Shown here: in pieces, positions 3,020-59,371 of the stretch
Layout of the letters: each line of letters starts with the position of its first letter
Position numbering within the stretch: position 1 is the stretch's first letter
Source: an uncultured Kiritimatiellota bacterium
Lineage (GTDB): Bacteria > Verrucomicrobiota > Kiritimatiellia > RFP12 > UBA1067
Assembly (NCBI GenBank): GCA_934635385.1
Contig: CAKTZI010000020.1
Location: 1,820 to 65,819, forward strand
DNA length: 64,000 nt
Direction: 5' to 3'
Notes under the pieces: model-generated
Seen by the model: the letters and a program-made list of their open reading frames with translations, nothing else
Told to the model about the DNA's origin: nothing
The model's database searches: none
Translations under genes and position numbers: made by a program

Positions 3020-3026
3020 ACGTCCG

Positions 3027-17319: not shown

Positions 17320-17466
17320 GTCAAATGAGACATTTTTAACAACAGGTGAGGATTCGTGTGGTATCTGCGGCGGTTACTAAACACAGAGCGGCCTCTGTGT
17401 TTCATGAAAACAGAGACTTTCGTGCGCGACAAGGCGAACGGAGGAAATGGTATAATTCGCCCCCTT

Positions 17467-30327: not shown

Positions 30328-30360
30328 TCGGGAACACGGTCGTGTAGTTTTGTGGTATAA
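30328..30360 (+). promoter_or_regulatory. Second copy of the promoter-operator CGGGAACACGGTCGTGTAGTTTTGTGGTATAAT
   Basis: Near-identical to 15435-15470. Confidence 0.55.
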
Positions 30361-30427
30361 TTCGCGTGTTCCTTGGGCGGCAGCGATTCTGCCCTTGGAT
30401 GTCGTAATCAATTATGTCGTGCTTCGC

Positions 30428-35184: not shown

Positions 35185-35245
35185 CGTCCATATTATACCA
35201 CAATCGAACGCCCGCCCATCGTGACGGGCGGGCGTTCGTCGTCTG

Positions 35246-37940: not shown

Positions 37941-37954
37941 AAGCGGCAGAGAAA

Positions 37955-40675: not shown

Positions 40676-40684
40676 GGAAGAGTT

Positions 40685-40696
40685 ATTATACCAAAA
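40685..40696 (-). promoter_or_regulatory. Extended -10 promoter TTTTGGTATAAT, 9 nt upstream of the ATPase ATG (leaderless-like)
   Basis: Reverse complement reads ccTTTTGGTATAATaactcttccATGAACGAG. Confidence 0.55.
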
Positions 40697-40784
40697 GGGA
40701 TGATTTGGCGCAAATCTGACTAAATAAACGATTTTTGACATATTTCAATAACATATAGCCACAATAACCGCATAAAGGGATGAT

Positions 40785-40850: not shown

Positions 40851-43800
40851 CTATTTGCGCCTTTCCGCGCGGATTTTCTCAATCAGTTTTGCCTTGCCGC
40901 GCTCGATGTCGGAGAGCAATGAGGCATCGACTTCATGGCCCTCCTTCTCGTCCCTCATCGCCCTTGCCTCGTCCCTGCGGATCTGCGCAATGTCGGCGGC
41001 GATGTCCTCGCGCACGCCCTCGCGCATGAGCGGATTTTCGGCAACGATGCTGTCGAGCAGAAGCCTCCTGTTCTGTTCGTCGAGAAGCTCGTCTTTCTCG
41101 ATGGCGTCGTATTCTCTCTTGGAGTCCAGGAATCGATTGGAGAGAATGGCGTAATCGTCTTTGCGGTACGTCCCCTTGCCGATGCCGAACATCGTCAGCC
41201 CCGCGCCGAGGAATGCCGTAGCCCACGCACGGTCTTCAATGCCGTTCTCGTAGATGGAATGCCCCGCATCGCGGAGCGAGATCGGCGCAAACGACAGCAA
41301 CAGTTCGGCCGCGCCGTAGTCCTGCCCTGTGTAGTCCTTCCCGGACAGTGCGGAGAAAGCATTGCTCACGAGCGGCGTGAGACGGCCCTTTGCGAAATGG
41401 GCAACCTCTCCGAACATGTCGCGCACTTTGGCCTGTTTCCCAGTAGCAGTCTCGTATGCGCCCGTCACAAGTCGGTTGCCGAGGCGCAGAAACGCCACGG
41501 AGCCGCCCGTGAGGTCAAGCTGCGTGTGCCGTATGCGTGGTGCAACGAGCATTTGCAGCCGTTTCACGGGGCCGGCATGGGCGAATTCGTCCTTCTGGTC
41601 GTCGGTCGCGAACAATGCCGTGAGCAGAGAGCCAAGTAGAATCGCGCCAAGATTCGAGCGCACGAATTCGCCGAGCCCAATCCTCGACATTGTAAGACGT
41701 TCCTTGAACGTACCCGAACCGTCCTCTTCCGCACTTGCCGTCCACGAATGCCATACCTGATACCCGATGAGCCGCTTCAACTGCGAATCGACAAGGCCAG
41801 GAGCCCAGAACACTTTGCCAAGTATGCGCCGGTTGTCCTTTGAGAGCGTGCCGGAACCGTTCATGACGTTTATCATGTCGCAAAGCATCTTCTTCTGGAA
41901 TACGGTTGCCCCGCCGGGGAAGAGTTTCGGATCGTTGACGATCGTGGAATAGAGGCTTGCGGACACGGCGTTGATGTATGTCGCATAGAGCCGGTCAGAG
42001 TTCTCTATGGACGTGCCGTAGAACGGAATATCGGTAAAGCGGAGCGCCTTGCCGCCAATCGTAAACGGCTTGTCGATTGCGTCAAACAACTCCACGCGCT
42101 CGCCGCGACTGGTCGAATCGGAAACCTTCTTCCAACGAAGCCAGCCGTTGTCCACGGCCTCCTTCACGGAAGCGTCGGAGAGAAGATCGAGTTCTATGTT
42201 CTCCGCGTTGATCCTGCTCTTGAACGCCGAAATCGTCTTTGCGAAGTTCGCCGCAACGATTTTCGGATGCGCCATGAGGATCGTACCCGTCTGGTTGCCT
42301 ACCTGCGTGAAGTCGAGCGAAGCCGTAGCCATCTTCCACACGCCGTCCACGAAACGGTAGGCATCGCCCATGAAACGGACGAACTTGGGCTTGCGGGCAT
42401 CCGCAGCTTCACGCCGCAAGTCGGCAAGCTTGCGGTGGGCCCTGTTCATCTGCTCGGCCATCGCCTCGTACCGCTTCTGCATTTCCGGCGGCATGGGCGG
42501 CTGCGGCTTCTTCTGCGGGCGCAGGTCGCCACGGACAATGCGTTCGGCAAGACGCGCAATCGCCTTTTCGCGATTTGCCATCTTGCGAGCGTTGTAGGCG
42601 GAAAGCTCTTCCGGCGTCAGGCCGAACTCGTACTTCGCCTTTTTGAGTTCGCGAATCTGGTTGCGCACCTCGGACAGCCTTTCTCGCAGAGCGTCAAGCG
42701 TGGGCGACTCGGCCCTTGGACGCCTTGCCTTCTTCGAGAAGTCGCCGGAACGCGCGCGGTCGAGATCGGCCAGCGCGTGTTCAAGTTCCCTGCCGAGAAG
42801 CCGTTCCGCAAGCTTCACGCGCTGCGCATCGGTCATCCCATGTTCAGTCCTGAAAAGCTCGTCATAGGTCTTCTGGAGTTCGTCCTTCCGCTTTCTCAGT
42901 TCGCGCAGTTCGATGTCCTCCATCACCGTGCGCTCTCGCCCGGGGATCTTCTCCCCCGTCTCGATTGCACGTTCAAGGTCTGCGATGCGGTTCTTCACGC
43001 GCGTCTTTGCGGATTCGAGGACGCCCTTCAGCCTCCGTGCGTCGCGTCCCGCATCCGGGACCTCCTTCTTGCGCTCCTGTACCTGCTTCTGCAGGTTTCG
43101 CGTCGTGTCGGACGGCTCGTCGCGCACCATGCCCGTAAGGGGCGGCATGGTGTTATTCTCGTCCATCCAGTCCATCTGCCGCTTGAGGCGAGACTGGGAA
43201 CGCAGGTCGTTCATGAGGCGCTGCGCCTCGTAGCGGGATTGCCGGAAGTTGTGGCCGAATCCCGTGAGCGCGTCGCGTACCTGATTCTCGTCCACGCCGT
43301 CCATGAACGGCGAGATGTCCTCCACGATTGCCTTGATGCACTCGTCTTCCGTGATGTCGGGATTCTCGAAGCAGTGGTATTCTCCGATTGCGCGGAGCCA
43401 CTTGCCCCAAGCCGGGTACTGCTGATCGGAAAGTCCGACAAGTGTGCCGCCGACCTCCGCAGAGCCGACCTCGATCTGGGCAAGCGCGTCGTTGTAGTTC
43501 CGCATGACGCGCTTCACCTCGTCACCGGGATTGCGCTCCGCCACCTTGCGAATCCTGTCGCCTCGTTTGATCTGCTCGACAATCTTCTCCGCCTGTGCCT
43601 TCAAACGTGCGGTGGCGAGATCCCTCCCCTCTTCGTCAAGCGTGGCAAATCCGTTGGCAATCTCCCGAATCTTCGCGTCCATTTCAGGCGCGATCTTGTC
43701 GGCACCGCCGAGGATTGCGGCCACCTGTCCCGAAATGCCGGCATACGAGAAGTCCGTCTGGTCGATGAGTCCACGGTTCGAGCGCAGCCGACGGCCAGCC

Positions 43801-46800
43801 TCCGAAGAACTCCGCGTCAGCGCAAGCCCGGTCTCGTACATGAGCGACTTCGCCTGTGCGAGCTGGGACATGGCCTCGCCATATTCGCGCGCGACCTTCT
43901 TCTGATTCTCGCCAAAGCCAGCGTCACGTTCGTCTTGGGGAATCGCATTGAACGCATCAAGCGTCTCTTTGAGTCCGTTCACGACAGACTGCGCCGCGTT
44001 TACCGCCGCCTGGCGACGGCGGAACAGGACATTGAGCGCATTGTTCTCGTAATCCGCGATGTTGCGCGGGAACTTCGCCACCGCACGGGAGAGTTTCTCC
44101 ATGTAGGACGGATTCGACAAAAGGGCCTCTGCCTGTTCCCACGCCGTCTCGTCCGGCTTGCGGACATGCTTCGGCGGTTCCATCCCTGCAGCCTTTAGGG
44201 CGGTTGCAATCTCGTCGTTCGTCATGCCGTACACCTCGCGCATGACCTGCTCCGTCGGTGTCTTGTCCTCCGCTTCGGAGTATTTCTCCTCCGCTGGCGT
44301 AAGGTTCGGCGTGTCGAAGTCAACCTGTCCGACTGAAAGCGTATCGACGCTCGGATATTCGCCCTTGCTGTTCGGTTTCAGGTGCGGGCGCAAATCAGCG
44401 GTCTTCGTCGCGGCGTTCTTCGGGCGGGCAAAGTCCTCCGCGTCCATGAGCGGAATCAGTTCCCTGACGGTCGGCGCGGAAAAGCTCTTCGCGTCACTTT
44501 CACGACGTGCAACGTACTTCTGTCCGTTTCCGGACTTCGTGATGAGCCAGTTGCCGTATGCCGCCGCCTTGCGGTTCTCGACCGCCTGAATGACGAGTGG
44601 CGTGATGGCCCGCTCCAGTTCCGCTTGGCGTGTGCGCAGCTTGACGAGTTCATCGCGCATCCCCTCGTAATCCTTCTGCAACCTGTCGGCATCGGCGGAC
44701 ATCTTCTTCGCCTGCCTGTCCATGTCGGCCAGCGAGTTCTCGTAGGCTTTCGCAAAGTCGGGCGACACCGTCTCGAATATCTTGCCCTTGAACGCCGTCA
44801 TTGCAGCCTGGGAGAAGTCGGGAAGGAAGCCGGAGTAGTTTATCTCACGCGCAACACCGATCATGGGGACGGCGATGTTGAACTTCTCATCGCCCCACTT
44901 GTCGTAGGTCAACACAAGCTCAACGCCGTTGAAGTCGCCGAGGACGGTCTTGTCGTCGCGTCCGTAGCGGTCTTTCGTAAGTTGCTTCGCCATCTGGGCG
45001 GAGACATAATCCGCCATGTCCTTCACCTTCTCGATGGATCGGCCGTCCGGCGTGGAGAGGGCGAACGGCTTTCCCTCGTTCTTCTTGCGCCACTCCTTCA
45101 CGCCCTCCTGTTCCCTTGCGAATTCCTCGCGGCGACGCGCCAGAATTCGGCTGTTCGCTTCCGCCCTGTCCTTGTTTCTCCGTGCGGACGAGAGGACGGA
45201 TTCCGTGTTGAGTTCGAGCTTGTGGACGCGCTTCTTCACGTCGATGAGCTCCATGAGCGCCTTGTTTCCCGAAGCAAGGCCCATGAGCATGTCGCGATCC
45301 ATCGCGCTTTCGTCCATGTCAATCTCACGGACGGAATCGTCACCGTGCATCACCTGGTCGATGAGCTTTGATTTCACGCCGATCAGCTGGTGGTTCTTCG
45401 TCTCGTAGGAGCCGATGTTGGCGTTGCCCTTCGTGAGGTAGTAGAAAATCTGCCCTTCCTTGTAGGTGTTGCCGAAGCGGATGATTCGTCCGATTGCCTG
45501 TTCGTCTTCGGACGGCTTCCATCCCGGATGCAGAAGGTGTATCGCCGCAAGCCGTTCCTGCACATTCGTCCCCTCGCCCATCTTCGGGCGTGATCCGATG
45601 AGCACGCGGACTTCGCCACTCCTCACCTTCGCGAACAGGGCGCTCTTGTTCGCGTCCTTGTCGCCCTTTGACTTGTCGATGTCCTGTATGATGGCGATCT
45701 CGTCCCTCGGTATTCCAGCCGTCACAAGCAGGCTGCGGATTTCCTCGTTGAGGTTATACGCACCTCTCGCATAAGGCATATCCTGACCGCCCGTAATGTG
45801 TGCGGCTATGTACTCGTCCGTGCCACCACTGGCGCGATTGAAGATGTCCGTGAAGACAAGTTGCGCACCACGCTCCGCCACCGTCTCGTCGTACACCTTC
45901 TTGATTTCGGACACGGCGCGGATGATCTTGTTGCCTCCGTCCTCAAAACCAAGCAGCCGTGGCGTGAGGCAGGCGTTCTTCGCGATTCGTGTCAACGTCA
46001 GATACTTGTTGCGCTCCTCGCGGCTCGGTGGAGTTGCCGCCTCATGCGCCACCATTTCCATGATGCGCTCCTGTGCAGGCGACATATCCACGTCAATCAT
46101 GTGGTATTTCGGCTTTGGACGCGGAATGTCCAGCTGATCGGGGTTTACGATGTCCACGACGCTCCGAAGGAGTTTCATCAGTTCCGGGATGTTCACGAAC
46201 GCCGAAACCTTTTCCTTCTCCTTTACCGTCTTGCCGTCAAGCGAGAATTCGCTTTCCGTTGTAATGCGCCCGAACGCATCCACGAAATCGTCGAAGTGCT
46301 TCAGCCCCTGCTCTTCAAGTTTGTTGGGGGCAAGGTATTTCAGCATGACATACGCCTCGACTACGGGCGCGTTGGAGAGCGGCGTGCCCGTCGCGAACAC
46401 GACACCTCGGTCACCGCCGTGCAGGGACTGGACGTACTGCGTCTTCATCTCCATGTCAACCGCCCGCTGGCTGTCGCCCTGCGAGAGTCCACCCGTGCGC
46501 CCCTGCCGCGTGGTGATCGGCATTCCCTTGAAATTGTGCGCCTCGTCCACGAAGAGCTGGTCCACGCCCAGTTCCTCGAACGGCACGATCTGGCTGTCGT
46601 GGTTCTCCGCGTTCGCAAGCTGTTCAAGTTTCGCCTCCAGCCGTTCGAGTTTCTTCGTGGCCTGATCGACTGAAATCCTCTCCCCGGCTTCGCGCATCGC
46701 GGCGATTGCCTCGATGAGGTCTCTCCGCTGCGCCTCCATGAATTCCTTCTGATACTCGTCGGACATGGCGAGCTTCTTGGAGAACGTGGAATGCTTCACG

Positions 46801-49800
46801 ACGATTGCGTCCCAGTCCCCGTTCGCCACCTGGGCGAAGAACGCCCGGCGGTTTTCCGGCTTTACGTCGGCCTCAGCCATTTTCAGGATGTTCGCGTTCG
46901 GAAACGCCTCCACAAACTCGTTCGTGAACTGCTCCAGCATGTGGTTCGGAACCACGTACATCGGCTTCTTGAACAGTCCCAAATGCCGTCCGAGAACGCC
47001 GATGGACTGCATTTCAAGCGTCTTGCCAGCGCCTACACAATGCGCAAGGCAGAGCGAACTGCCGCCGAGAACGCCACGGGCGATCACGTCGGACTGGTAT
47101 TCGCGGCCCTTCTTCGGCTTCTTGGGGTCGCCGCCCTCGAAGAGCTTGCCCAGCGCCGCCTCGCTCATTCCTGCGGCGCGGAACGGGAGGATGTTGTTCG
47201 GCAACTTGATCTCCACCATGTCCGTCATGACCGCATTGTAGCGTTCGTACATCGGCTCCGCCCACCGCTCGCTTGCCTGGATGAACTGCGAGAACGCATG
47301 GTGCAGCTTCTCCGCCGCGAGCTTGTTCCCCTCGGTGCGCTTCTCGTTGAGATAGCGTTTCTTGTCGATGGGATCGGTCTCGTAGTGGTTCATCGAGCCG
47401 TGGTTCAGGACGCGGCTAACGAACTCCTGCGGCGACCAGCTCGTTTCGCCCCACGGGTCTTCGTTCATGATGCGCCCGAACTCGACATTCCACTGCCCCG
47501 TCACCTCGTTCCTGCCCAGCATGATGTGCATGGACTCGGAACCGAATGCGTCGCGCAGGAAATCCTTCATGCAGTCCGTATCGACCCATGTCGCGCCGAA
47601 CTTGATTTCCGCATCCTCCAGCCGCACCATCGGCGGCTGCACCTTTTCAAGCGCCTCAACGTTCGCGCGGTAGGATTCTTCGCCCGCCTCGACGGCGGCA
47701 CGCGCCGCCGCAAGCTTCGCGCGGACGCGCCCGGAGAGGTATTCCCACGACGGTTCGAGAAGCCCCGTCTGCGGATTCTCGAAAGCGTCGCCGCCCTCTT
47801 TCAGTTTTCTGACGGCTTCCTCGTCACCCACGCCCAGCAGTTCCGCGATTCGCGGCACGTTGATTGCGCCGGACTCCGAATAGGAGATTACGAGCGCGTC
47901 CTTCGGCGTGTCGGCCTTCGTCGCCCGCTGTCCGCGAGAGATGACGCGCTTCGTGAAGATGTCGGACTTCACCACTTTGGGCTTTCCGCTTTCGTCCTTC
48001 ACGATTCGCTCAAGGGCAAGCAGCCTGTTCCCGTCCGCCTTGTCGAGAAGCACGAACGGCGAAATCCACTTGTCGTGAAGTGTTCCGTTTGCCTTCACGA
48101 AGGTGTCGTAAGCCTCGTTCAGCTTCGCCTGAAGCGGGGCAAGATCGGTTTCCACGGAGTCATTGTCCGTCATCTGCGCATCGATCACGTCCCGCATGGC
48201 CTTCCGAAGCGAAAGCAGCCCGCCCATGATCCTGTCCGGGGTTCGCCCGCGCTTTTTGAGTTCCTTGGAGAGCGAACGGTCGTTCGGGAAGACAATCGGC
48301 TCCAGCATCTCGCCGCTCTTGATGAACGGCTTGCCGTCCTTCATCGTGACGCTGCCCTGTCGCAGTCCCTCTGCGTCGTAGACCGGCGTGTGGTCTTGGC
48401 GCTCCGCGACCGCCGCGCTCTTCAGGAGCGCGTCCTTGTCGATGCCGTCCAGCGCACGGCCGATGGCCTTGCCTATCTCAGACGACAGGTCGCCCGGCAG
48501 CACGTCGGGCATGGAGTACTTCAGAATCGGCCCGAACTGGCCGCTCGCAATCTCCATCGTGCCGACAACCTGCTCCGGGTGGTCTTGGAAGTAGCCGTTG
48601 TATGTCAGCGGCTTCTCGATCCGGCCTTTGCGGCGCACCCATTCTTCAGTCTTGCCGTATTCCACGCCCTTCTCAAACGCCGCGTTGTCGGGACGGCCCT
48701 GCACCTTCTGGACGATCACGAGGTCGCTTGCGACATCCGTTCCCGCGTTTTCGGAGAAGAACCCGTTGGGGAGGCGCACAGCACCGACAATCTGCCCACC
48801 GTGCTCCGTGAGGAACTGGCGGAGAATCGGGCTTGTCTTGTCGAGTGTGCCCGTCGATGTCAGGAACGCCATCACGCCGCCCGGCCGCAGCTTGGCAAGC
48901 GTCTTGGCGAAGAAGTAGTCGTGGATCTTGAACATCCTGGACGACAGCGAACGGTCGTTGATCGGTACGTCCGCATACGGCACGTTGTCGATCGCGAAGT
49001 CGAAGAACCCGTCGGGGAACTTCGTTTCCTCGAACCCGCCGATGTTCACGCGCTGGTTCGGGAAGAGGGCCTTGAGCATTTCGCCCGTCAGGACATCCTT
49101 CTCCACGAACTGCCAGCTGACCGGCTTCTCGTATTCGCCGGCCGCGCTCGCGAAGTTGCCCGTTCCGGCGGACGGGCCGAGGAACCGCCCGCCTTTCACG
49201 CCGAGGCGGCGAAGGTTCTCATGCAGCGCCCGGACGAAGTAGACTGGCGTGTAGAACGCCGTCGAGGCGGAAGCCTTTGCCGACTCGTATTCCTTGTCGT
49301 TGAGAAGCTGCCGAAGTTCCCTGTGAAGGCCGTACGCGCCCTGGCTGATTCCGTACCTGCGGAGAACGCCGGGTACGCGCTCCGGCTCGCCCGCACGTTC
49401 AAGGGCATATGCGCTTTCAAGCCCATACCCGAACATGTCCTCGCGCAATCCGCCCCATCCGACGAACTTGGCGAGCGTGGCCTGCTCTTCCGGGGTCGCC
49501 GCGTAGTCCCGCGCTTTCAGGTCGCGGATGAGCCTTATCGCGTCGAGATTGTTGCGGACGCGCTGTGCCGTCTTCTTTTCGAGGATCGCGTCCTCGACCG
49601 ATTTCGTCATGACGAAATCGCGGCGCGTGGGATTCGGCTTTGTCGCGTCTGCGGCCTTGGCGGCACGCTTCTTTACGTGCGATACTCCGCCCTGATTCCC
49701 ATCTCCTGCGCGATCTCGCCCAGTCTCGCGTTCGCCATCCTCGGATACCGAGCGATTTCCGACGGGGCCATTTCCTTCAGCAGACGCTCTGCCGGAGTCT

Positions 49801-52800
49801 CCTCCCCGTACTCCTTCCGTAGTTCCCTTGCCAGCCAATCCTTCATGCTGTCCGGGAATCGCCCCAAGTCGTTCACCGACCACTCGCGCATCGGGATTTT
49901 CAGGCCGTACCCGTCCACCGGCCAGTATTCCTCCGGATTGCTCCCCTCCTCCGTCGGAGGCGGGTTCAGCCGCAACCACTCCGTGCTGCCCTCTTCTATC
50001 TGCTCCATCATTAACCTCCTTGGCTTGTGCCTCTATTATACCAAAAATGCGCTCTGCCTCTGCGTCACTCACGCGGGCAAGCCCGCGTGCGCGAGCCACG
50101 GCGTTCCAGATGTCCTGAAGAACCGGCTTCGCACGTTCGTACTTCGCCGCGTCGCGCTCGTAGATGTAGGTGGCAAGGGCCTTGAAGTCCTTGTGCCCGC
50201 TCTCGACAAGCACATCGACGAGCTTACCAACGCCCGTGACGAGTTTCCCGAACTTCTCCGGGTTGAAGTCGGGCGTGTCGAAATCTACTTGCCCGCTTGC
50301 GCCTTTCGCGCCGCCTCCTGCAACGCCGCCCGTATTGCGGACACTCGCTTCCTCTCGTTCTCGGAGGTGTCCGAGGAAATAGTTTGCGCTTTCCCTGATT
50401 CTTGCATGGTCTGGATTTCCTTTCGCTTCAAGCTGTTTAAGTGTGATTTCAGGCGCACCGTCTACGGAATTATCGTAGATATGGAGATGTATTTTATCAC
50501 CATACGCATCGGAAAGCAACCGCAGGTTCTCGCGGCTCTTCACGTGCGAGTTGGCGAACGAGAGCGGCGAGACGATATGCCCGCCGTTCTTGACGCGCTG
50601 CGCGATGCCTTCCAACGCCTGTCCGGGAGTGCGGTAGACGAAATGTATCTCCGGCTTCTGCCCATTGGCAAGAATCGCGTCTATCTGCCTCTTCGCCACA
50701 TCGAGGTTGCCGAGCGTGGAATCTATCGTAAAATCATGGCTATCCCCAATCTTCGCGGCCACGGTCGATTTCCCCGCACCGTTTCCGCCTGCAAGGAATA
50801 CTACAGTTCCATCGCCCTTGCCCTTGCGCGTCTTCAGCAGACGCTGGAACTGCGCCTCCAACCGAGGCCCAACATAGCCCGTCCTGTCAACGTGCGTGCT
50901 CCAGTCCAACCGGTTGTAGCCCGGCATGGTCTTTCGCACCTCGTCGCCGCTCACGATTGTCGAATCCACGCCCAGTTCGGGGCTGTCGAAGTCGATTGCG
51001 TCGAGCGCGGCCTTCGCCTTGCGTTCAGCCGCCTCGTCCTTCATCCTGATGGACGGGGCTTTAGACGTCTTCGGCTTGGCAACATGTCGGGATTCCCGGC
51101 TGCTTGCCGATTCTGGCCGATTCAGGGCGTTTTCGTAGATTGCAACGGAGTTCTTCCCGTGGATCTCGTCAAAGTCCTTCCAGCTCACATGCAGTTGCGT
51201 TGCATTCCTGCGTGTACCGTCGCCGAAGATGTATGCCGAATACGCATTCCCCGATGTGTCCTCATAGCCAAATGACAAGTCCCCGCCCCTGCGCAGATAG
51301 ATGGCGTGGACTTTTGCGTTTGGATTGTTCTTCCGCCATTCAGCGAAAGCATCGCCCTGTTTTTTCGTGACGGCGTTTGCGGCTGGTTCGGGCTTCGTCT
51401 CCAGCTTCGCCGTCATCACCATGCCCATCGCCGCCGCCTCCTCCGGCGTGACGCGCTTCGTGATCTTCCGGCCGTTCTCCTCGATTTCCACGGTGACCTT
51501 GTGGTGCGCGTTCTCAATCGGAACGCCGCCGACTTTGAGCGGCTTGCCGTCCTCAACAGGCTTCGCGGGCTTTTCAGTTGTTAAGTCTTTCTGAACAACT
51601 GCCGTAGCGCCCGATTTCTGCCCCTCTGTGGGCTTCGCGGCTTTTGGACGCGCCGTTGCCTCCGTTTTCTTCGAATCGCTCACAGGGCCGTTTTCGCGCG
51701 TCTGTGGTAGGGGCATAACGCCAACGATTTCAGACCTGTCGAAGGTGTCTATCGCGTTATAGTTCCAGCCGTCCCGGTAGGACACCTTCACGCGGTTGCC
51801 GTCCACGGATACGATCGCGCCGCGAATCTTCTGCCGGGCGTTGATCTCGCCGCCCGTGTCGTGCTGGATGACCACTTCCCGATTGGGCGCAATGTCACCT
51901 TCCCTTGGTACGACGTAGCCATCGACCGGCTCTGTCGTGCCGTCCTTCTTCGTGAAGACGGCGACCTTGGGAGTCACAGGTTTCGGCCTCTGCGTCCGGT
52001 TGAACAGGTCTTCGCCCTCTGCGCCGCCGAGATCCATGAGAGACTGCCCGACTTCGCCCGCGCCGCCCTTCAACGGAGCGGCCTTGCGACGCTCGATTTC
52101 CTCCTTCTCCGTCCGCTTCCGTTTTTCCTCCGCGATCTGGTCGCCCGTGACGCGCTCCAGTTCAAGGTTCTCCTTCGGGACGATGCCGAGTTCCGCGTCA
52201 AGGGCTGCCTTGTCGGCTTCGTCGAGCCGCACGGCGTTGCGCCAATACTCCGCCCTTTCGAGCGCCTTTTGGCGTGCGTCGGCGAGCTGCTTCCTGTCCT
52301 TGGGGTTCCTGATGCCAAGTTCTTTCGCGTACGCCTTGTTGAGGTCGAGTCGACCGCCCTTCTGCATGGCCGTCTGAAGGACGTTCGCAATGCGCCCGTA
52401 CTCGTTCGCCTTTTCGACGCGCTTGGCGGCGCGCTTCTCCTCCAGGGCCAGCAGCTTCAGGTCCTCTTCCGACGTGAAGAGGTCGAGCTGCATTTCCCCG
52501 CCCGTCGCTGGGGCCTTGCGGCTTTTCGCCTCTTCGGACAGTGAACGCGCCACGATGGCGAGCCTATCGCCCCGCAGTCCCTCCAGCGCCTTTTTGACGA
52601 GGATCTTCTGGACGGCTCCGTTGCGCGGATGGGCGTTCCTCGGCGCGGCCTTGGCGATGATTCCGGCCTGTTCGACCGAAATCAGCCCATCGGCTCCGCT
52701 TCCGCTCCAGTCAACTGCCGCCCGAGTGCCTTCCGTAGCACCTTCGTAAAGCTCGAATGCGAGTCTGCCCTTGCTCCGCGAGAGGAATCCGGCGGATTCG

Positions 52801-55800
52801 GCTGCGGCTCTTGACGGCTTGGCGTTTTCAAAGTATCTGACATAATCCTTTACACTTCCTTTCTCATCGATGATGTTTGAGATTGCGTCCAAATTGCGCA
52901 TGTCCTCCGGCGTATAGCCGTCCTTCTCGTAGAACAGGCGCGCCAGGATGTCCTTCTTGCCCGTCCGCTTGGCGAGGTCGAACCTGTGGCGACCCGTCAC
53001 GAGTTCCTTCGTCCCGTCCCTGCGGACATAGACGACCACGGCGTTCTCCGCGCTCTCGAAGTATTCCCCCTTGAGTTCCTGCCCCTTCACGACGCCCGTC
53101 TTCGGGTCTGCGCCCTCCTTGAACTGCGTGTCGGGAAGGGAAACGTCGCCGACGGGAACGCGCACCGGCTCCTGGTTGTCGTGCATGACGCGCAGGAAGT
53201 CGTGTTCCGTCCGCATGGCCGGGGAGATGCCGTCCGTTGCCGCACCTACATCCGGCTTTGCAGTTTTCGCGCCCGCTGCCGCCGCCGCTTCATTTCGCTG
53301 AACTTCTTGGCCTTTCGCCCGCCCGTCCATTCCGGCATTCTCGACCGGCTGTGTTTCATCGGCTCCATTCCCTGTCTCATCCTTTACCTCCGTGTTTGTC
53401 TCTTTGTGCCCTTCCACCGGGAAGAACTCAAACCTTTCGGGCGTGTCCGCACGTCCCGCCGCAACGCCGCCCTCGCCCTTCGCCGCCTCGCGCCACCGTT
53501 TCATCATCACCTTCACGTCGGCGGACGAATACGTCTTGCGCAGATTCATCTTCCGCGCCGCGTCGTTCACCTTGCTGACGAGCTTGTCGAGTTTTGACGG
53601 CTCCGCGTCAAGGTTCGCCGAGGCATAGTGCGCGAACACCTCGGCGAGATTCCCGTTCACGCCCTCCATCGTGCCGCACGTGGCCGGGAAAAGCCCGTCC
53701 ACGATCTGCCTCTTGAACGCATCGAACTCCTTTGCGCGGATGTTCTCCGCGAATTCGACCGCGCCCGATTTCCCGAACTCGCCATTCGGCCCGCCATGCC
53801 CGACGATCTCGTGCGCGAGAATGCGCGGGATGTCGCCTACCTCCTGAACGTTGTCGAGAATCACGACCGCCGTTCCGTCCGACGTGTAGAAAGCGTCCCT
53901 GTCCTGCACTGCCGGATTGAGCAGCTGGCTGGCATCGTTCAGCCCAAGGCAAGTGCCGTCCCGTGCGATGCCGTCCGCGAACGCCTGTGCTGCGTCCGCC
54001 ATCGTGTTGAAGTAGACGACGTTCTTCTTGCCGTACTTCGCCGCCCGCTCGTTCTCGATGACCTGCCGCTTGCGCTGACGGTCGAGGGCGGTGTACTGCC
54101 CCATGAGGGCAAGTTCCCGTGCTTTTTCGACGGCCTCGCCAAGCGTGGCGGCTCCGTCGCTGTCGCCCGTGTCGTTGTGGACGGAGAAAGTCCCGTCCGC
54201 CTCCTCCATGATCGTCACGCCCGTGTTGGGGTCATGCGCAAGGTTGCTGACGTTCTCCTTGCCCGTCCTGTTGTCGCGCCACTTCATCGGAACAAGTCCG
54301 GGCTTCCCGTCGGCAGTCTGCGGGAGGCTGAAGCTGACAGGTTCAACCCCGAACTCGCTCTTCATCTTCCTGGCGAGAGCCTGCGACGGGGTGACGACCT
54401 TTCCCGTCTCCGCGTCGATTGTCGGCTTTTCGGGTATGACCGCGCGTTCCGGCTGCGCGTTCGCCGCGTCGCGAAACTTTGCGTTCAGCGTGTCGCCAAG
54501 GAAGTTCGCGACGCGCGGATCGAAAAGAATGTCAGTCGCGAGCTTCGCGTCCGGCGGAAGCCCCGCCTTGTCGCACAGTTCCTGAAACTTACGCACTGCC
54601 TCTTTCGTCGGCTTCCAGTCGGGGGCGGGGGCGCGGCCTTTCGCCGCCTCGCCCGTCGTGCCCGCTTCGAAGTCCGCCGCCGGCTTCGCGTGCGCCTTTG
54701 CGGTGTCGATTCCCTCCTGGACAAACCGCTTCAGGGCCATCATGCCGTCGGGATTCAGCCTTGCCAGCAAGAGACGGCCTTCCGGCATCTTGGCGGCTTC
54801 CCGGACGACCTTCTCGTAGTCACGCGCACCCTTGACGCGGGCGTTCAGGACGCGCCCGGCGCCCATGATCGCGCCAATCGCGACACCATCGCGAACGCCT
54901 TTCAATCCCTCGATGGTGATCTCCCCAAGGTCGAGGTCGTGTCCGCTGGCGAGTTGGCGGAATGCCGTATCGCCCGCACCTTGTGCGCCCATGAGACCGC
55001 CCGCTTCAAGCGCGGCAACACCCTGGTTCAGGAACTCACGCTTCGCGTTGAACCGCCCCATTGCCTTGGAAAGCCCGCCGAACGTGAACTTCTCGACGGG
55101 CTGGACGGGGACGATGCCCTTGCCGTTCATCCAGCGGCGGAACGGCGCATAGTAGAATGCCGCCGTCATCGCACCGTCGAAGAGGGCGCTGCCGCCCGCG
55201 ATGTCCTCCGCCGCCTTGCCCGTCTTGCCGCTTTCCAACGCCGTGCTGCGCGTCTGCTGGTATGCGTCGGCGGACGACATGGCAATCATCGTCGGGCCAA
55301 GGTACGCGAACTGCGCGATGCCGGATGCCGCGCCCTCCAGCCAGTCCACCACCGCGCTTCCCGAATTGCCGACGGGTGTCTTCTCGTCCAGCCAGTTGCG
55401 GATCCGCTTCGCGTCACGTATGGCCATGTTGCCGACAGCCGTCCCCTCTCGGCCATTCTCCACCATGAGGGAATGTTCCTGGTGCATTCCCTCCTTCCCG
55501 GCTATCGGGGCTTCCCACCTGAAATACTTTTCAAGGTTCTCGCGCACGGACGGATCGCGCTTCGCCATGCGCTTTACCTTCTCGTCGATGTTCACGCGCC
55601 CCAGCCAAGCATCAAACGATTCGCCCTCCTTCTTCGCCATCGGGTCGTCGGCCATGAATGCGTGACGCGCGTCTTCGTCCACGCCGCCAGCCGCCGTGCC
55701 GACAAGGTTGATGAGACCGGCGGCCATCTTGCCCGCCGTGTTCACGACGGTGCGGGGGACGCTCCGCCATCCCGCGCTTTTTCCCGTGCGCTCACCGTTC

Positions 55801-56600
55801 CCCGCGCGATTCCCCGCGACATACGCCAATGCCTCGCGCATTTCCTCGGGCGACTTGGACTCCTTGCGGATGCGCTCGATCTGCCAGTCCTCCAGCCCCG
55901 CTTCCTTTGCGACCCCGGCAAGGGCATCCTCGTCGCTTTTTCCGTTGCGCGGCACGCGCTTGCGACCGATCGGCTGGCCCATCGTGTTGTACGCCATCTC
56001 GTCCGACTCGTCCGTGCCGCGTTTCCATTCGGCAACGGCATCTGCCGTGTCGCCGTTCGCAAGCCGCTCCATGAGCGTGATCCTGTCCGGCTCGGTGCGT
56101 TTTTTGTGCTCATAGGCAACGCCCCGGTCTCGCCTGATCTCGTCCGAAACGTCGTCCCAGTGTTCGTGAAGCCAGTCGTTCCATTTCGACTGGTTGTCCT
56201 TCATGTGGGCATCGTGGACTTCCTGCGCCATCTTCTGCGCGGAAGCCTCGTCATCCGCCATGCCCCAATGCTCGCCCGTCTCGGCGTAGTGTCGGACGGC
56301 ATCCTCCTGCGAGAGTTCCTTCCCGCCGACAACCGTCGGCACGACGGCGAACTTGCCGTCTTCATGCCGAACGAGCATGGACGATGTGGTGGAGTAGCCG
56401 TTCATCTTTCCGTCCTTGTCGCGGCGAAGGAGAACCCTGCGGCCCTCGTTGCGAAGGTTTCCGCCCCACTGGTTCTTCTCGCCGTCGGGAAGCCTTTCAT
56501 TCCCACCGTCGCCGTCCTCACAGCTCAGAGGTTCAACCTCGCCAAAATCATCCGCCGCCTCAACAGGCTCGATTTCGCCCCACTCTTCGTTGTCATTCAT
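40851..56600 (-). CDS. Giant 5249-codon ORF. A polyvalent protein (HExxH zincin motif, ParB-like, zeta-toxin-like P-loop, N6-adenine MTase, SNF2 helicase, ~1500-aa coiled-coil C-terminal region). It may really be two genes (A: 56600 to ~50050; C: 49610 to 40851) joined by a no-stop read-through across the embedded gene region.
   Basis: Strong RBS AAGGAGG 8 nt before the ATG at 56600. Motifs located in DNA: HEIVGH 53797-53814, VTGRHRF 52981-53000, GGNGAGKST 50764-50790, NVPYAD 48966-48983, SNF2 motif I GAGKTLEMQ 47008-47034, DEAH 46526-46551, QAIGRIIR 45481-45510. Strong GC3 codon bias throughout except 49611-50045. Confidence 0.7.
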   Translation of the reverse strand: MNDNEEWGEIEPVEAADDFGEVEPLSCEDGDGGNERLPDGEKNQWGGNLRNEGRRVLLRRDKDGKMNGYSTTSSMLVRHEDGKFAVVPTVVGGKELSQEDAVRHYAETGEHWGMADDEASAQKMAQEVHDAHMKDNQSKWNDWLHEHWDDVSDEIRRDRGVAYEHKKRTEPDRITLMERLANGDTADAVAEWKRGTDESDEMAYNTMGQPIGRKRVPRNGKSDEDALAGVAKEAGLEDWQIERIRKESKSPEEMREALAYVAGNRAGNGERTGKSAGWRSVPRTVVNTAGKMAAGLINLVGTAAGGVDEDARHAFMADDPMAKKEGESFDAWLGRVNIDEKVKRMAKRDPSVRENLEKYFRWEAPIAGKEGMHQEHSLMVENGREGTAVGNMAIRDAKRIRNWLDEKTPVGNSGSAVVDWLEGAASGIAQFAYLGPTMIAMSSADAYQQTRSTALESGKTGKAAEDIAGGSALFDGAMTAAFYYAPFRRWMNGKGIVPVQPVEKFTFGGLSKAMGRFNAKREFLNQGVAALEAGGLMGAQGAGDTAFRQLASGHDLDLGEITIEGLKGVRDGVAIGAIMGAGRVLNARVKGARDYEKVVREAAKMPEGRLLLARLNPDGMMALKRFVQEGIDTAKAHAKPAADFEAGTTGEAAKGRAPAPDWKPTKEAVRKFQELCDKAGLPPDAKLATDILFDPRVANFLGDTLNAKFRDAANAQPERAVIPEKPTIDAETGKVVTPSQALARKMKSEFGVEPVSFSLPQTADGKPGLVPMKWRDNRTGKENVSNLAHDPNTGVTIMEEADGTFSVHNDTGDSDGAATLGEAVEKARELALMGQYTALDRQRKRQVIENERAAKYGKKNVVYFNTMADAAQAFADGIARDGTCLGLNDASQLLNPAVQDRDAFYTSDGTAVVILDNVQEVGDIPRILAHEIVGHGGPNGEFGKSGAVEFAENIRAKEFDAFKRQIVDGLFPATCGTMEGVNGNLAEVFAHYASANLDAEPSKLDKLVSKVNDAARKMNLRKTYSSADVKVMMKRWREAAKGEGGVAAGRADTPERFEFFPVEGHKETNTEVKDETGNGADETQPVENAGMDGRAKGQEVQRNEAAAAAGAKTAKPDVGAATDGISPAMRTEHDFLRVMHDNQEPVRVPVGDVSLPDTQFKEGADPKTGVVKGQELKGEYFESAENAVVVYVRRDGTKELVTGRHRFDLAKRTGKKDILARLFYEKDGYTPEDMRNLDAISNIIDEKGSVKDYVRYFENAKPSRAAAESAGFLSRSKGRLAFELYEGATEGTRAAVDWSGSGADGLISVEQAGIIAKAAPRNAHPRNGAVQKILVKKALEGLRGDRLAIVARSLSEEAKSRKAPATGGEMQLDLFTSEEDLKLLALEEKRAAKRVEKANEYGRIANVLQTAMQKGGRLDLNKAYAKELGIRNPKDRKQLADARQKALERAEYWRNAVRLDEADKAALDAELGIVPKENLELERVTGDQIAEEKRKRTEKEEIERRKAAPLKGGAGEVGQSLMDLGGAEGEDLFNRTQRPKPVTPKVAVFTKKDGTTEPVDGYVVPREGDIAPNREVVIQHDTGGEINARQKIRGAIVSVDGNRVKVSYRDGWNYNAIDTFDRSEIVGVMPLPQTRENGPVSDSKKTEATARPKAAKPTEGQKSGATAVVQKDLTTEKPAKPVEDGKPLKVGGVPIENAHHKVTVEIEENGRKITKRVTPEEAAAMGMVMTAKLETKPEPAANAVTKKQGDAFAEWRKNNPNAKVHAIYLRRGGDLSFGYEDTSGNAYSAYIFGDGTRRNATQLHVSWKDFDEIHGKNSVAIYENALNRPESASSRESRHVAKPKTSKAPSIRMKDEAAERKAKAALDAIDFDSPELGVDSTIVSGDEVRKTMPGYNRLDWSTHVDRTGYVGPRLEAQFQRLLKTRKGKGDGTVVFLAGGNGAGKSTVAAKIGDSHDFTIDSTLGNLDVAKRQIDAILANGQKPEIHFVYRTPGQALEGIAQRVKNGGHIVSPLSFANSHVKSRENLRLLSDAYGDKIHLHIYDNSVDGAPEITLKQLEAKGNPDHARIRESANYFLGHLREREEASVRNTGGVAGGGAKGASGQVDFDTPDFNPEKFGKLVTGVGKLVDVLVESGHKDFKALATYIYERDAAKYERAKPVLQDIWNAVARARGLARVSDAEAERIFGIIEAQAKEVNDGADRRGQHGVVAAEPASDGGGEQSGGILAGGRVRPENPDARVVGERLGAIPGQHEGLAGKGTTEGVRGGDSGRASAEGNGPVGNRSVSEDGERETGRDRAGDGNQGGVSHVKKRAAKAADATKPNPTRRDFVMTKSVEDAILEKKTAQRVRNNLDAIRLIRDLKARDYAATPEEQATLAKFVGWGGLREDMFGYGLESAYALERAGEPERVPGVLRRYGISQGAYGLHRELRQLLNDKEYESAKASASTAFYTPVYFVRALHENLRRLGVKGGRFLGPSAGTGNFASAAGEYEKPVSWQFVEKDVLTGEMLKALFPNQRVNIGGFEETKFPDGFFDFAIDNVPYADVPINDRSLSSRMFKIHDYFFAKTLAKLRPGGVMAFLTSTGTLDKTSPILRQFLTEHGGQIVGAVRLPNGFFSENAGTDVASDLVIVQKVQGRPDNAAFEKGVEYGKTEEWVRRKGRIEKPLTYNGYFQDHPEQVVGTMEIASGQFGPILKYSMPDVLPGDLSSEIGKAIGRALDGIDKDALLKSAAVAERQDHTPVYDAEGLRQGSVTMKDGKPFIKSGEMLEPIVFPNDRSLSKELKKRGRTPDRIMGGLLSLRKAMRDVIDAQMTDNDSVETDLAPLQAKLNEAYDTFVKANGTLHDKWISPFVLLDKADGNRLLALERIVKDESGKPKVVKSDIFTKRVISRGQRATKADTPKDALVISYSESGAINVPRIAELLGVGDEEAVRKLKEGGDAFENPQTGLLEPSWEYLSGRVRAKLAAARAAVEAGEESYRANVEALEKVQPPMVRLEDAEIKFGATWVDTDCMKDFLRDAFGSESMHIMLGRNEVTGQWNVEFGRIMNEDPWGETSWSPQEFVSRVLNHGSMNHYETDPIDKKRYLNEKRTEGNKLAAEKLHHAFSQFIQASERWAEPMYERYNAVMTDMVEIKLPNNILPFRAAGMSEAALGKLFEGGDPKKPKKGREYQSDVIARGVLGGSSLCLAHCVGAGKTLEMQSIGVLGRHLGLFKKPMYVVPNHMLEQFTNEFVEAFPNANILKMAEADVKPENRRAFFAQVANGDWDAIVVKHSTFSKKLAMSDEYQKEFMEAQRRDLIEAIAAMREAGERISVDQATKKLERLEAKLEQLANAENHDSQIVPFEELGVDQLFVDEAHNFKGMPITTRQGRTGGLSQGDSQRAVDMEMKTQYVQSLHGGDRGVVFATGTPLSNAPVVEAYVMLKYLAPNKLEEQGLKHFDDFVDAFGRITTESEFSLDGKTVKEKEKVSAFVNIPELMKLLRSVVDIVNPDQLDIPRPKPKYHMIDVDMSPAQERIMEMVAHEAATPPSREERNKYLTLTRIAKNACLTPRLLGFEDGGNKIIRAVSEIKKVYDETVAERGAQLVFTDIFNRASGGTDEYIAAHITGGQDMPYARGAYNLNEEIRSLLVTAGIPRDEIAIIQDIDKSKGDKDANKSALFAKVRSGEVRVLIGSRPKMGEGTNVQERLAAIHLLHPGWKPSEDEQAIGRIIRFGNTYKEGQIFYYLTKGNANIGSYETKNHQLIGVKSKLIDQVMHGDDSVREIDMDESAMDRDMLMGLASGNKALMELIDVKKRVHKLELNTESVLSSARRNKDRAEANSRILARRREEFAREQEGVKEWRKKNEGKPFALSTPDGRSIEKVKDMADYVSAQMAKQLTKDRYGRDDKTVLGDFNGVELVLTYDKWGDEKFNIAVPMIGVAREINYSGFLPDFSQAAMTAFKGKIFETVSPDFAKAYENSLADMDRQAKKMSADADRLQKDYEGMRDELVKLRTRQAELERAITPLVIQAVENRKAAAYGNWLITKSGNGQKYVARRESDAKSFSAPTVRELIPLMDAEDFARPKNAATKTADLRPHLKPNSKGEYPSVDTLSVGQVDFDTPNLTPAEEKYSEAEDKTPTEQVMREVYGMTNDEIATALKAAGMEPPKHVRKPDETAWEQAEALLSNPSYMEKLSRAVAKFPRNIADYENNALNVLFRRRQAAVNAAQSVVNGLKETLDAFNAIPQDERDAGFGENQKKVAREYGEAMSQLAQAKSLMYETGLALTRSSSEAGRRLRSNRGLIDQTDFSYAGISGQVAAILGGADKIAPEMDAKIREIANGFATLDEEGRDLATARLKAQAEKIVEQIKRGDRIRKVAERNPGDEVKRVMRNYNDALAQIEVGSAEVGGTLVGLSDQQYPAWGKWLRAIGEYHCFENPDITEDECIKAIVEDISPFMDGVDENQVRDALTGFGHNFRQSRYEAQRLMNDLRSQSRLKRQMDWMDENNTMPPLTGMVRDEPSDTTRNLQKQVQERKKEVPDAGRDARRLKGVLESAKTRVKNRIADLERAIETGEKIPGRERTVMEDIELRELRKRKDELQKTYDELFRTEHGMTDAQRVKLAERLLGRELEHALADLDRARSGDFSKKARRPRAESPTLDALRERLSEVRNQIRELKKAKYEFGLTPEELSAYNARKMANREKAIARLAERIVRGDLRPQKKPQPPMPPEMQKRYEAMAEQMNRAHRKLADLRREAADARKPKFVRFMGDAYRFVDGVWKMATASLDFTQVGNQTGTILMAHPKIVAANFAKTISAFKSRINAENIELDLLSDASVKEAVDNGWLRWKKVSDSTSRGERVELFDAIDKPFTIGGKALRFTDIPFYGTSIENSDRLYATYINAVSASLYSTIVNDPKLFPGGATVFQKKMLCDMINVMNGSGTLSKDNRRILGKVFWAPGLVDSQLKRLIGYQVWHSWTASAEEDGSGTFKERLTMSRIGLGEFVRSNLGAILLGSLLTALFATDDQKDEFAHAGPVKRLQMLVAPRIRHTQLDLTGGSVAFLRLGNRLVTGAYETATGKQAKVRDMFGEVAHFAKGRLTPLVSNAFSALSGKDYTGQDYGAAELLLSFAPISLRDAGHSIYENGIEDRAWATAFLGAGLTMFGIGKGTYRKDDYAILSNRFLDSKREYDAIEKDELLDEQNRRLLLDSIVAENPLMREGVREDIAADIAQIRRDEARAMRDEKEGHEVDASLLSDIERGKAKLIEKIRAERRK
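45400..47300 (-). other. SNF2-family helicase domain of the giant ORF
   Basis: Motifs I, II (DEAHNF), III (TGTPLSN) and VI (QAIGRIIRFG). Confidence 0.75.
48400..49610 (-). other. N6-adenine DNA methyltransferase domain (DarB/Ddm-like) beginning MTKSVEDAILEKKTAQRVRNNLDAI...LAKFVGWGGL
   Basis: NVPY catalytic motif, and TGTLDKTS after the AdoMet region. Confidence 0.7.
49673..50011 (-). CDS. Embedded 112-aa gene in an alternative frame within the giant ORF, with its own promoter and SD; hypothetical protein
   Basis: TTTTGGTATAAT (50035-50046), then AAGGAGGTTAATG ATG. MMEQIEEGSTEWLRLNPPPTEEGSNPEEYWPVDGYGLKIPMREW.... GC3 bias supports this frame over the giant-ORF frame in the same interval. Confidence 0.6.
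   Translation of the reverse strand: MMEQIEEGSTEWLRLNPPPTEEGSNPEEYWPVDGYGLKIPMREWSVNDLGRFPDSMKDWLARELRKEYGEETPAERLLKEMAPSEIARYPRMANARLGEIAQEMGIRAEYRT
50035..50046 (-). promoter_or_regulatory. Extended -10 promoter TTTTGGTATAAT internal to the giant ORF (translated there as ...ERIFGIIE...)
   Basis: Read directly. Followed 14 nt later by SD AAGGAGG. Confidence 0.55.
50400..50900 (-). other. Zeta-toxin/AAA_33-like P-loop kinase domain of the giant ORF
   Basis: VVFLAGGNGAGKSTVAAKIG. Confidence 0.55.
52800..53100 (-). other. ParB-like (ParB/Srx fold) domain of the giant ORF
   Basis: VVYVRRDGTKELVTGRHRFDLAKRTG. Confidence 0.55.
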
Positions 56601-59191: not shown

Positions 59192-59371
59192 CTATCGGTT
59201 GGCGATGACCTGCTTCAGCTGCTGCACCTCCGTGCGCAGGTCCCGCACCTTCCTGTCATATGTCTCCTTCAGGAATGTCTGGTTCTCAAGCAGAAGGAGT
59301 ATGGCCTTCTGCACCTTCGGCTCCTTTATGCCGACGATGGAAATTGCCGCATTGAACTTCTTGGCGCTCAT
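59192..59371 (-). CDS. Small phage-module protein (59 aa from MSAKKFNAAISIVGIKEPKVQK), hypothetical
   Basis: The rest of the ORF-track model 59192-59644 is Arg/Gly-rich off-frame-like sequence. Confidence 0.3.
   Translation of the reverse strand: MSAKKFNAAISIVGIKEPKVQKAILLLLENQTFLKETYDRKVRDLRTEVQQLKQVIANR

Follow-up and report, generated by a model that had tools for sequence, protein, structure and literature searches.

A conserved out-of-frame gene nested in the linker of a giant DarB-like anti-restriction gene

Introduction

Genes nested out of frame within other genes are thought to be rare in bacteria and in double-stranded DNA phages, and annotation pipelines discard them. This report concerns such a gene in a 64,000-nucleotide stretch of DNA from an uncultured Kiritimatiellota bacterium (contig CAKTZI010000020.1; the whole stretch is called the window here), where a 112-codon open reading frame (ORF) lies within a 15.75-kb ORF that is predicted to encode a giant polyvalent DarB-like anti-restriction protein. 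Among the closest described arrangements is that of comS in Bacillus subtilis, a small gene that lies in a distinct frame wholly inside srfAB, a very large multidomain gene, with both products being functional (PMC12915044). Among phages, Rz1 embedded in Rz has been mentioned for the same phage group as JC1, a related phage in whose virions a giant DarB-like protein was detected by mass spectrometry (PMC9144972). Polyvalent proteins, including the dyad of DarB methylase and superfamily 2 (SF2) helicase, were described by Iyer et al. 2017 (PMC5512222), who treated them as single-frame polypeptides; the words overlapping, frameshift, promoter and TnpV do not occur in the text of that paper. A literature search found no paper describing the nested arrangement or the nesting of TnpV genes in such proteins, although the library searched is incomplete and an earlier description is possible.

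Anatomy of the locus

The 15.75-kb ORF appears to be a single gene, and over the linker joining two blocks of its product the +1 frame of the same DNA appears to encode a second, small protein, with both frames maintained by selection. The features of the locus, in window coordinates, are:

40851-56600, minus strand: giant ORF of 5,249 codons, a single open frame, predicted gene for a polyvalent DarB-like anti-restriction protein (relatives L008 and L006 are full-length)
50469-50735, minus strand: Zeta_toxin (P-loop kinase) domain in the N-terminal block, giant-protein residues 1956-2044 (Pfam PF06414, E 1.4e-12)
50013-50294, minus strand: conserved helical domain of ~94 amino acids (aa) in the giant protein, from alignment and from AlphaFold2 (block-mean predicted local distance difference test score, pLDDT, 66-80)
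50035-50046, minus strand: extended -10 promoter-like element TTTTGGTATAAT, with a predicted transcript start near 50028
50015-50021, minus strand: Shine-Dalgarno (SD) sequence of the nested gene, AAGGAGG, which the giant frame translates as K-E-V
49673-50011, minus strand: nested +1-frame gene, 112 codons plus TAA, encoding the orphan protein termed family 1 (from the ORF, conservation and AlphaFold2)
49674-50012, minus strand: giant-frame reading of the nested gene's bases, a stop-free linker of ~113 aa rich in G, R, A, E and D and predicted to be disordered
49611-49673, minus strand: restart of giant-frame coding, KKRAAKAADATKPNPTRRDFV, conserved across loci, with no SD ahead of the ATG at 49610
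44445-49622, minus strand: DarB-like methylase-helicase module of the giant protein (phrog_10089 match; tblastn)

The nested ORF lies wholly inside the giant ORF, on the same strand and offset by +1, and the 5,249 codons of the giant ORF contain no internal stop. A preliminary description of this DNA, made from its letters and ORFs, had reported TTTTGGTATAAT at 50046-50035, AAGGAGG at 50021-50015, ATGATG at 50011-50006, the 112-codon ORF behind them and a giant frame without a stop over the small gene, and each of these is present as described. The ATGATG opens the nested ORF and a TAA at 49673-49675 closes it, with the SD placed 3 nucleotides (nt) from the first ATG and 6 nt from the second. 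The preliminary description had taken the ATG at 50011 as the start; because homologs of the small protein begin with MEQIEEG, the second ATG, at 50008, is probably the true start, giving a product of 111 aa. The promoter that it had assigned to the nested gene is likewise borne out in part, being of the extended -10 type only, with no -35 element found ahead of the gene. Upstream, the small frame is closed by a TAG at 50035-50033, 7 codons ahead of the ATG. The final ~15 codons of the conserved ~94-aa domain double as the promoter-like element and SD of the nested gene.

Over positions 50000-49700, the GC content at codon positions 1, 2 and 3 (GC1, GC2 and GC3) of the giant frame is ~0.8/0.6/0.43, as against 0.64/0.42/0.77 gene-wide; it is thus the small frame that has the normal coding signature, in agreement with the G/C third-position bias of the small frame and the weak third positions of the giant frame noted earlier. 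Both GC3 and substitution periodicity place the switch to the small frame exactly over the overlap. A GC-periodicity scan of the giant ORF for further nested genes convincingly flagged this junction alone. Long antisense and alternative-frame ORFs of up to 1,494 aa also overlap the giant gene (at 46791-51275 on the plus strand, and many more); they are typical of GC-rich coding DNA and are not evidence of genes.

The core of the promoter-like element, TGGTATAAT, occurs 11 times in the window where 0.02 occurrences are expected, and only one copy falls inside the giant ORF. The remaining copies are located just 5' of start codons, several of them at leaderless distance (the comparison with the ORF map was made for the copy ahead of the P-type ATPase gene alone, where the motif had been noted before and is confirmed). 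By its enrichment and placement, TGGTATAAT is clearly recognizable as a candidate promoter motif of the host.

The small protein

Sequence searches with the nested protein recovered family 1 homologs of 107-129 aa that had already been called as separate proteins. The related loci are in a metagenome-assembled genome of Faecalibacterium sp. CAG:74, in metagenomes and in one IMG/VR contig, and comprise ~11 distinct variants from independent assemblies, with 40-95% identity and a common set of motifs (WPVD.YG.KIP..EW.V.DLG.FPDS). Identity was higher in the small frame than in the giant frame in 21/21 pairs compared. AlphaFold2, supplied with six sequences only, predicts a helical fold for the small protein with a pLDDT of 84.5 and a predicted template modeling score of 0.71, whereas the giant-frame reading of the overlap, at similar alignment depth, has block-mean pLDDT values of 26-42 between flanks of 57-80. 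Family 1 proteins are acidic, with isoelectric points (pI) of 4.05-4.67, and the window protein has a pI of 4.7. The conserved motifs, higher small-frame identity, periodicity switch and confident fold all point to protein-level selection on the inner frame. The small frame is best described as encoding a real, acidic orphan protein that is predicted to be folded and, from its start signals, expressed.

The nested ORF might instead be untranslated, with its conservation arising from a constraint on the linker peptide or on the nucleic acid. This explanation is extremely improbable: conservation, GC3 and substitution periodicity track the small frame and not the giant frame, the fold is predicted with confidence, the SD and ATG are kept in all variants, and a free-standing copy (see below) has an intact small ORF while its other frame decays. 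There is no Rfam match over the nested region, and a structured RNA as the source of the conservation was dismissed in the absence of such a match.

No match to the small protein was found in the plasmid collection searched with it, and a Pfam search gave none at E <=0.01, so the protein is not a recognizable member of PF14198 (TnpV), the family that occupies the equivalent position in many other loci (see below). The idea that it serves as an antitoxin to the adjacent zeta-toxin domain was weakened by L008, in which the same small protein is preceded by a Kinase-PolyVal domain. On a low-coverage metagenome contig (L005), the small ORF (3594-3905) has lost its 5' part and adjoins unrelated DNA; the contig was set aside as probably a chimeric assembly or else a decayed fragment.

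The giant frame across the overlap

Wherever the flanks could be read, the giant frame continues without a stop across the small ORF and in frame with both flanking blocks; the full-length giant relatives have 5,272 (L008) and 5,382 (L006) open codons. None of the 17 embedded variants, which comprise two families of nested protein (the second is described below), has a giant-frame stop in the overlap. The ordinary stop at the end of the upstream module, which the preliminary description had named as the sign of an assembly error, is thus seen in 0/17. When synonymous codons were resampled with each small protein held fixed, as a null for giant-frame stops, 2.8-4.6 stops were expected per locus and the probability of finding none was 0.005-0.048 per locus, or 0.004-0.048 across the two families. 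Among the "at-risk" codons, i.e., those with AA, AG or GA next, 0/712 end in T; the corresponding figures are 6.1% for this context in the flanks and 10.1% for the remaining contexts of the same ORFs.

In comparisons of the window with L008 and L006, the flanks vary mostly at giant-frame position 3; in the overlap the three positions are about equally variable, and giant-frame position 3, which is small-frame position 2, tends to be the lowest. Over the overlap the giant frame is conserved only as an absence of stops and the small frame is conserved as a protein, the reverse of the pattern (a conserved linker and an unconserved 112-codon frame) that the preliminary description had said would refute a nested gene.

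Giant-frame coding with normal GC3 and a conserved KKAAKKAADSTKPNP.RRDFV restarts exactly at the stop of the small ORF. It had been suggested that MTKSVEDAIL (ATG ~49610) is the N terminus of a separate methylase, and this must be abandoned: coding begins upstream of it, at the small ORF's stop, no SD precedes the ATG at 49610, and the Met is absent in a sister lineage. The downstream block, with neither an SD nor a conserved Met, thus has no independent start. These observations bear on the reading in which two large genes flank a small one and the missing stop is an assembly error or an inconsequential chance read-through. Open alternative frames are indeed common at 61% GC, but 17 variants from independent assemblies, with small-protein identities as low as 40%, have the same open frame, and T-ending at-risk codons are wholly avoided except in the free-standing copy. 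With the downstream block devoid of start signals, and with nesting also found where the zeta-toxin gene is separate (see the plasmids below), accidental read-through or misassembly has almost no probability left to it. The alternative put forward in the preliminary description, a promoter-plus-gene unit overprinted in the linker of a true giant polyvalent protein, fits the evidence.

A second family and the translation signals

Viral contigs were searched with the conserved 94-aa domain that precedes the overlap. In L020, L021 and L023, and later in L026-L028, a different +1 ORF of 122-132 aa (family 2) was found at the same junction, behind TGGTAYAAT or TCGTATAAT and an SD, with the giant frame again open; the ~94-aa domain with the nested slot is present in L019-L021 and L023. 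The family 2 ORFs first located are:

L020, 6284-6652: family 2 nested ORF
L021, 6284-6655: family 2 nested ORF
L023, 6293-6691: family 2 nested ORF

No similarity between families 1 and 2 was detected in any frame, with tblastx and blastn giving only low-complexity noise, and on that ground the two were ruled out as frame-shifted versions of each other.

A free-standing copy of family 2 was found in two samples (L024, 2071-2469, and L025, 534-932). It carries the same TGGTATAAT/GAGGAGG cassette together with ~55 nt of upstream-domain coding sequence, lies between unrelated flanks with a divergent upstream gene, and looks like a copy that has left a giant gene. Decay is evident in its -1 frame, which contains 2 stops; 2/39 at-risk codons end in T, which is the background rate. 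This decay, set against the 0/17 variants with stops and the 0/712 T-ending codons of the embedded copies, argues that the outer frame is actively kept open through the overlap. L022 has the same upstream domain with a similar peptide (AERIFSAIE vs AERIFGIIE) and no nested ORF, no -10 and no SD, so that the two signals are present together with the nested ORF and are both missing along with it. A TG-extended -10 (TGnTAYAAT) is located 23-29 nt ahead of the ATG in 14/17 embedded variants, with the element relocated but present in L023, and an SD-like motif is found in 17/17 as well as in the free-standing copy.

SD-stimulated +1 shifting is known from prfB, and the strong internal SD a few bases ahead of the frame junction would also suit recoding, in which a +1 ribosome shift near the SD would append the small protein to the giant one as a C-terminal domain ending at the TAA at 49673-49675. 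This is highly improbable. The spacer between SD and ATG varies in sequence and in length (3-9 nt) and contains no conserved slippery or hungry codon, so that no conserved shift-prone codon context was found at the junction among the variants. An ATG at initiation distance is kept in every variant, the free-standing copy has the same SD and ATG without any upstream frame, and the in-frame TAG 7 codons upstream of the ATG closes the small frame.

The nested slot in other phages and plasmids

The window locus is one instance of a widespread nested-gene slot located just upstream of the DarB-like methylase module. A scan of IMG/VR with the methylase N-terminal region yielded 80 DarB-like loci with GC contents of 29-69% and identities of 33-43%, except for L029 (87%), which is the L008 contig itself. 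At 68/80 loci a +1 open run of at least 70 codons ends between -400 and +60 nt of the methylase match, and ~57/80 have credible nested proteins, which end within ~170 nt ahead of the match, a few overlapping its start. All positive-scoring candidates are in frame +1 and none in +2. A codon-usage log-likelihood ratio trained on each locus's own methylase region favors the nested frame by up to +0.9 per codon, while -0.19 was the best score among 151 alternative-frame control ORFs in the methylase region. At loci with 37-47% GC, an open run of this kind would arise by chance with a probability of 0.0005-0.03. One BLAST cluster, comprising 45 nested proteins, represents the TnpV family PF14198. 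Matches to PF14198 at E <=0.01 were obtained for 19/50 slot occupants tested (best E 5e-12), and hhalign weakly relates several small clusters and family 2 to TnpV (probability 27-80%; family 2, 50%).

Cultured phages share the arrangement, with an unannotated TnpV-like +1 ORF preceded by an SD just upstream of the methylase module in BcepIL02, Pavtok and Itty13:

L112, 1727-2050: unannotated nested ORF of BcepIL02
L113, 1511-1828: unannotated nested ORF of Pavtok
L114, 1400-1723: unannotated nested ORF of Itty13

BcepIL02 gp70 and Pavtok gp27 are annotated as single giant coding sequences (CDSs). The Itty13 record has CDSs annotated over the nested region on the opposite strand, which looks like a misannotation. 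In MH426726 the Pavtok nested ORF spans 32014-32328, and JC1, LASTA and VvAW1 are further cultured phages that share the layout. Homologs of the Pavtok nested protein were found in 21 phage records, with 47-86% identity outside the two records of Pavtok itself; the phages infect Erwinia, Klebsiella, Pseudomonas, Agrobacterium, Vibrio, Sinorhizobium, Ochrobactrum and Microcystis. In 21/21 records one large annotated CDS covers the match, and this CDS is called DarB-like in most.

Three Proteobacterial plasmids also have a nested small ORF at +1 offset, listed here by RefSeq accession:

L109, 2487-2825: nested gene of NZ_CP116247
L110, 2406-2711: nested gene of NZ_KY270855
L111, 2346-2651: nested gene of NZ_CP034782

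RefSeq annotates the small and large genes of these plasmids as separate, with the small gene called "TnpV protein" or "hypothetical" and the start of the large gene placed after it, which would by itself favor the two-gene reading. The large frame is, however, open for 184-255 codons upstream of its annotated start, and in the two Pseudomonas plasmids L110 and L111 the substitution periodicity is [.33,.17,.62] before, [.55,.29,.19] inside and [.23,.14,.58] after the nested ORF, i.e., the large frame has coding periodicity on the upstream side too. The annotated starts of the "helicase-related", "DEAD/DEAH" and "N-6 DNA methylase" plasmid genes are therefore probably truncated, and the small gene is probably nested there as well. 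Annotation of the pair has thus either ignored the small gene or truncated the big one. In the two Pseudomonas plasmids the zeta toxin family protein is encoded by a separate upstream gene; the window lineage is one that fused more modules onto a unit already holding the nested gene.

The breadth of the slot also bears on the possibility that the nested gene is moron-type cargo, an exchangeable accessory cassette (e.g., an anti-defense or lysogeny-expressed gene) in a tolerant linker, functionally unconnected with the methylase-helicase. Morons are by definition independent transcription units (PMC3594210), and the nested gene has a host-type promoter of its own, TGGTATAAT, which by sequence is enriched in the window and kept in most variants. 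At least two families without strong mutual similarity occupy the slot behind a homologous promoter and SD string, a free-standing copy carries the same cassette in unrelated DNA, and family 1 proteins are small and acidic. On the other side, the position of the slot is constant in phages and plasmids of several phyla, mostly with one superfamily (TnpV), a pattern more like that of a partnership; no terminator was found after the nested ORF on the minus strand within 49300-50400; and the unit lies inside a coding frame and not between genes. Cargo of this kind is unlikely, and less likely than a partnership with the methylase-helicase.

The giant protein and the surrounding element

The C-terminal block of the giant protein matches phrog_10089 ("DarB-like antirestriction") with E=0 and 1028 bits over profile positions 1568-3245 of 4647, and tblastn pairs it with the DarB-like, N-6 methylase and SNF2 genes of numerous phages and plasmids; a sequence search of solved structures with both halves of the giant protein gave no match. 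The giant polypeptide thus has the adenine methylase and SF2 helicase dyad of polyvalent DarB-like proteins, as indicated by the PHROG and tblastn matches, accompanied by the Zeta_toxin domain and by internal-virion-protein neighbors. In L008 the Kinase-PolyVal domain occupies the part of the gene that corresponds to the window's Zeta_toxin domain (50469-50735), upstream of the nested gene, and between giant-protein residues ~1880 and 2100 the window and L008 are only 20-35% identical, compared with 70-95% in the flanks; modules appear to have been swapped around a constant nested gene. In L006, a region at 6172-7251 (giant codons 1061-1420) has weak GC3 periodicity (0.59/0.40/0.46) and no long alternative-frame ORF, and may be a recently acquired or low-complexity module.

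Immediately upstream of the giant gene, two ORFs have matches to PHROG 511 ("internal virion protein"), and one of them also has Listeria-Bacteroides repeat domains. This points to a structural or ejection module of a prophage. Relatives of the element are found in IMG/VR contigs and, together with the internal-virion-protein neighbors, make the element look like a prophage. From this context the giant protein looks like a packaged and ejected polyvalent protein. The neighboring genes are:

62814-63950, minus strand: ORF matching PHROG 511, E 4.6e-45
59371-61317, minus strand: ORF matching PHROG 511, E 8.5e-5
35976-37292, minus strand: phage-type integrase, just past the 3' end of the giant gene
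37410-38384, minus strand: methylpurine-DNA glycosylase, likewise
37958-40741, minus strand: P-type ATPase, likewise

The TGGTATAAT copies outside the giant gene are located at 7298-7306, 10605-10613, 13296-13304, 13432-13440, 15459-15467, 17448-17456, 26617-26625, 30353-30361, 35192-35200 and 40685-40693. A T-run often precedes the motif, and at several copies an ATG follows within 0-10 nt, which suggests leaderless mRNAs. Two of these promoter regions, 15430-15467 and 30325-30361, have a longer near-identical string in common (gggaacacggtcgtgtag(c/t)ttt(t/g)TGGTATAATtcgcg), which may be a repeated regulatory or mobile sequence.

Proposed arrangement

The nested out-of-frame gene is genuine by its conservation, and the aligned sequences show dual coding with selection on each of the two frames, together with conserved signals for translation and a promoter-like element. 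As a whole, the following account is considered quite probable. The 15.75-kb ORF would be a single real gene of a prophage-like element, and its product, a giant polyvalent DarB-like anti-restriction protein, would be packaged in the virion and ejected with the DNA. A linker of ~113 residues would join the N-terminal effector block of this protein to the methylase-helicase block, and the +1 frame of the same DNA would be an independent gene for a folded acidic protein of 111-112 residues, with a host-type extended -10 and a strong SD that share the final codons of the domain before it. The small protein could be produced with a timing of its own, whether from a separate transcript, by internal initiation on the long mRNA, or by both. 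Its amino-acid sequence would be under selection, as would the absence of stops in the giant frame, whose product over the overlap would be a passive disordered tether. The small protein might then work with the methylase-helicase as a regulator, inhibitor or chaperone, a partnership suggested by the retention of the slot position across phyla. Its independent production, timing and function are thus proposals drawn from the arrangement of the locus.

Several observations weigh against this account. We infer the expression of both products at this locus from sequence. The nested gene has no -35 element, and its -10 is degenerate (AAGACAAT) in the clade of L007, L009 and L011. No family or fold relatives of the window's small protein were detected, and there is hence no clue to its biochemical function; hhalign gives family 1 a probability of <=1.7% to any slot occupant and 0.2% to the TnpV cluster. 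Because family 1 resembles neither TnpV nor the other occupants, a shared function with TnpV is an assumption, and the window protein is a different or unrecognizably diverged occupant of the TnpV slot. In the survey, nested-ORF starts were picked automatically and 23/80 DarB-like loci had no credible nested ORF. The variants are related by descent, so that pooled P-values overstate their independence, and 7-38% of 112-codon windows in GC-rich giant genes have an open -1 frame on an empirical baseline. An open giant frame at one locus is therefore weak evidence alone, and it is the comparative data that carry the case.

A broader proposal is that DarB-like genes in general are two-gene units, in which the methylase-helicase has an obligatory small partner protein, either TnpV-type or an analog like the window's orphan, that serves as inhibitor, chaperone or timing switch, and in which the gene of this small protein is locked in the linker upstream of the methylase module, inseparable by recombination and on a schedule differing from that of the late giant protein. 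This is put forward tentatively, as a possibility that falls short of the likely. If true, it would give TnpV, a 30-year-old orphan family, its first functional context.

The evolutionary signatures are unusually clean here, the linker that holds the nested gene belongs to one of the largest protein classes of phages and plasmids, and the arrangement is seen in several phyla. An unannotated gene is probably concealed in the giant DarB-like genes of BcepIL02, Pavtok and Itty13; about ten more cultured phages have homologous ORFs beneath their single large CDS; and for many plasmid genes called "helicase-related" or "N-6 DNA methylase" the RefSeq start has probably been placed too far downstream. 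Disordered linkers can act as slots for second genes, and the arrangement offers a handle on DarB-type anti-restriction and on the uncharacterized TnpV family.

Comparison with known systems

Like comS in srfAB, the window's nested gene is a small out-of-frame gene wholly inside a very large multidomain gene. comS reportedly lacks a separate promoter and is not known as a conserved slot whose occupants are exchanged; the overlap described here, in contrast, falls on a linker between domains, includes a promoter-like element and is found again in other phyla. The Rz1/Rz spanins are the classic phage case of a gene wholly embedded out of frame, and their products work together. They differ in that the genes and functions are unrelated to those at this locus, in that Rz is small whereas the host gene here is a 14-16 kb virion protein gene, and in that the partnership proposed here is inferred.

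The TnpV ORFs in DarB-like genes have the same +1 slot, size range, SD and ATG, and open host frame as the window's nested gene, whose product differs from those occupants in having neither a PF14198 match nor hhalign similarity to the TnpV cluster. The giant gene itself resembles the polyvalent proteins of Iyer et al. in encoding multiple effectors with a methylase-SF2 helicase dyad, and in the swapping of zeta and kinase modules between relatives. Phage morons are similar in being independent promoter-plus-gene units in a late or structural region, with a free-standing copy elsewhere. Morons typically sit between genes and usually carry a terminator, whereas the unit in the window is enclosed by a coding frame that has to remain open, and a search for a terminator gave none. 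Out-of-frame nested genes are therefore a known kind, as in comS in srfAB and Rz1 in Rz; what is new is the linker of a polyvalent virion protein gene as the host, an internal promoter in the last codons of a domain, the turnover of occupants in a fixed slot, and the breadth of the arrangement across phages and plasmids.

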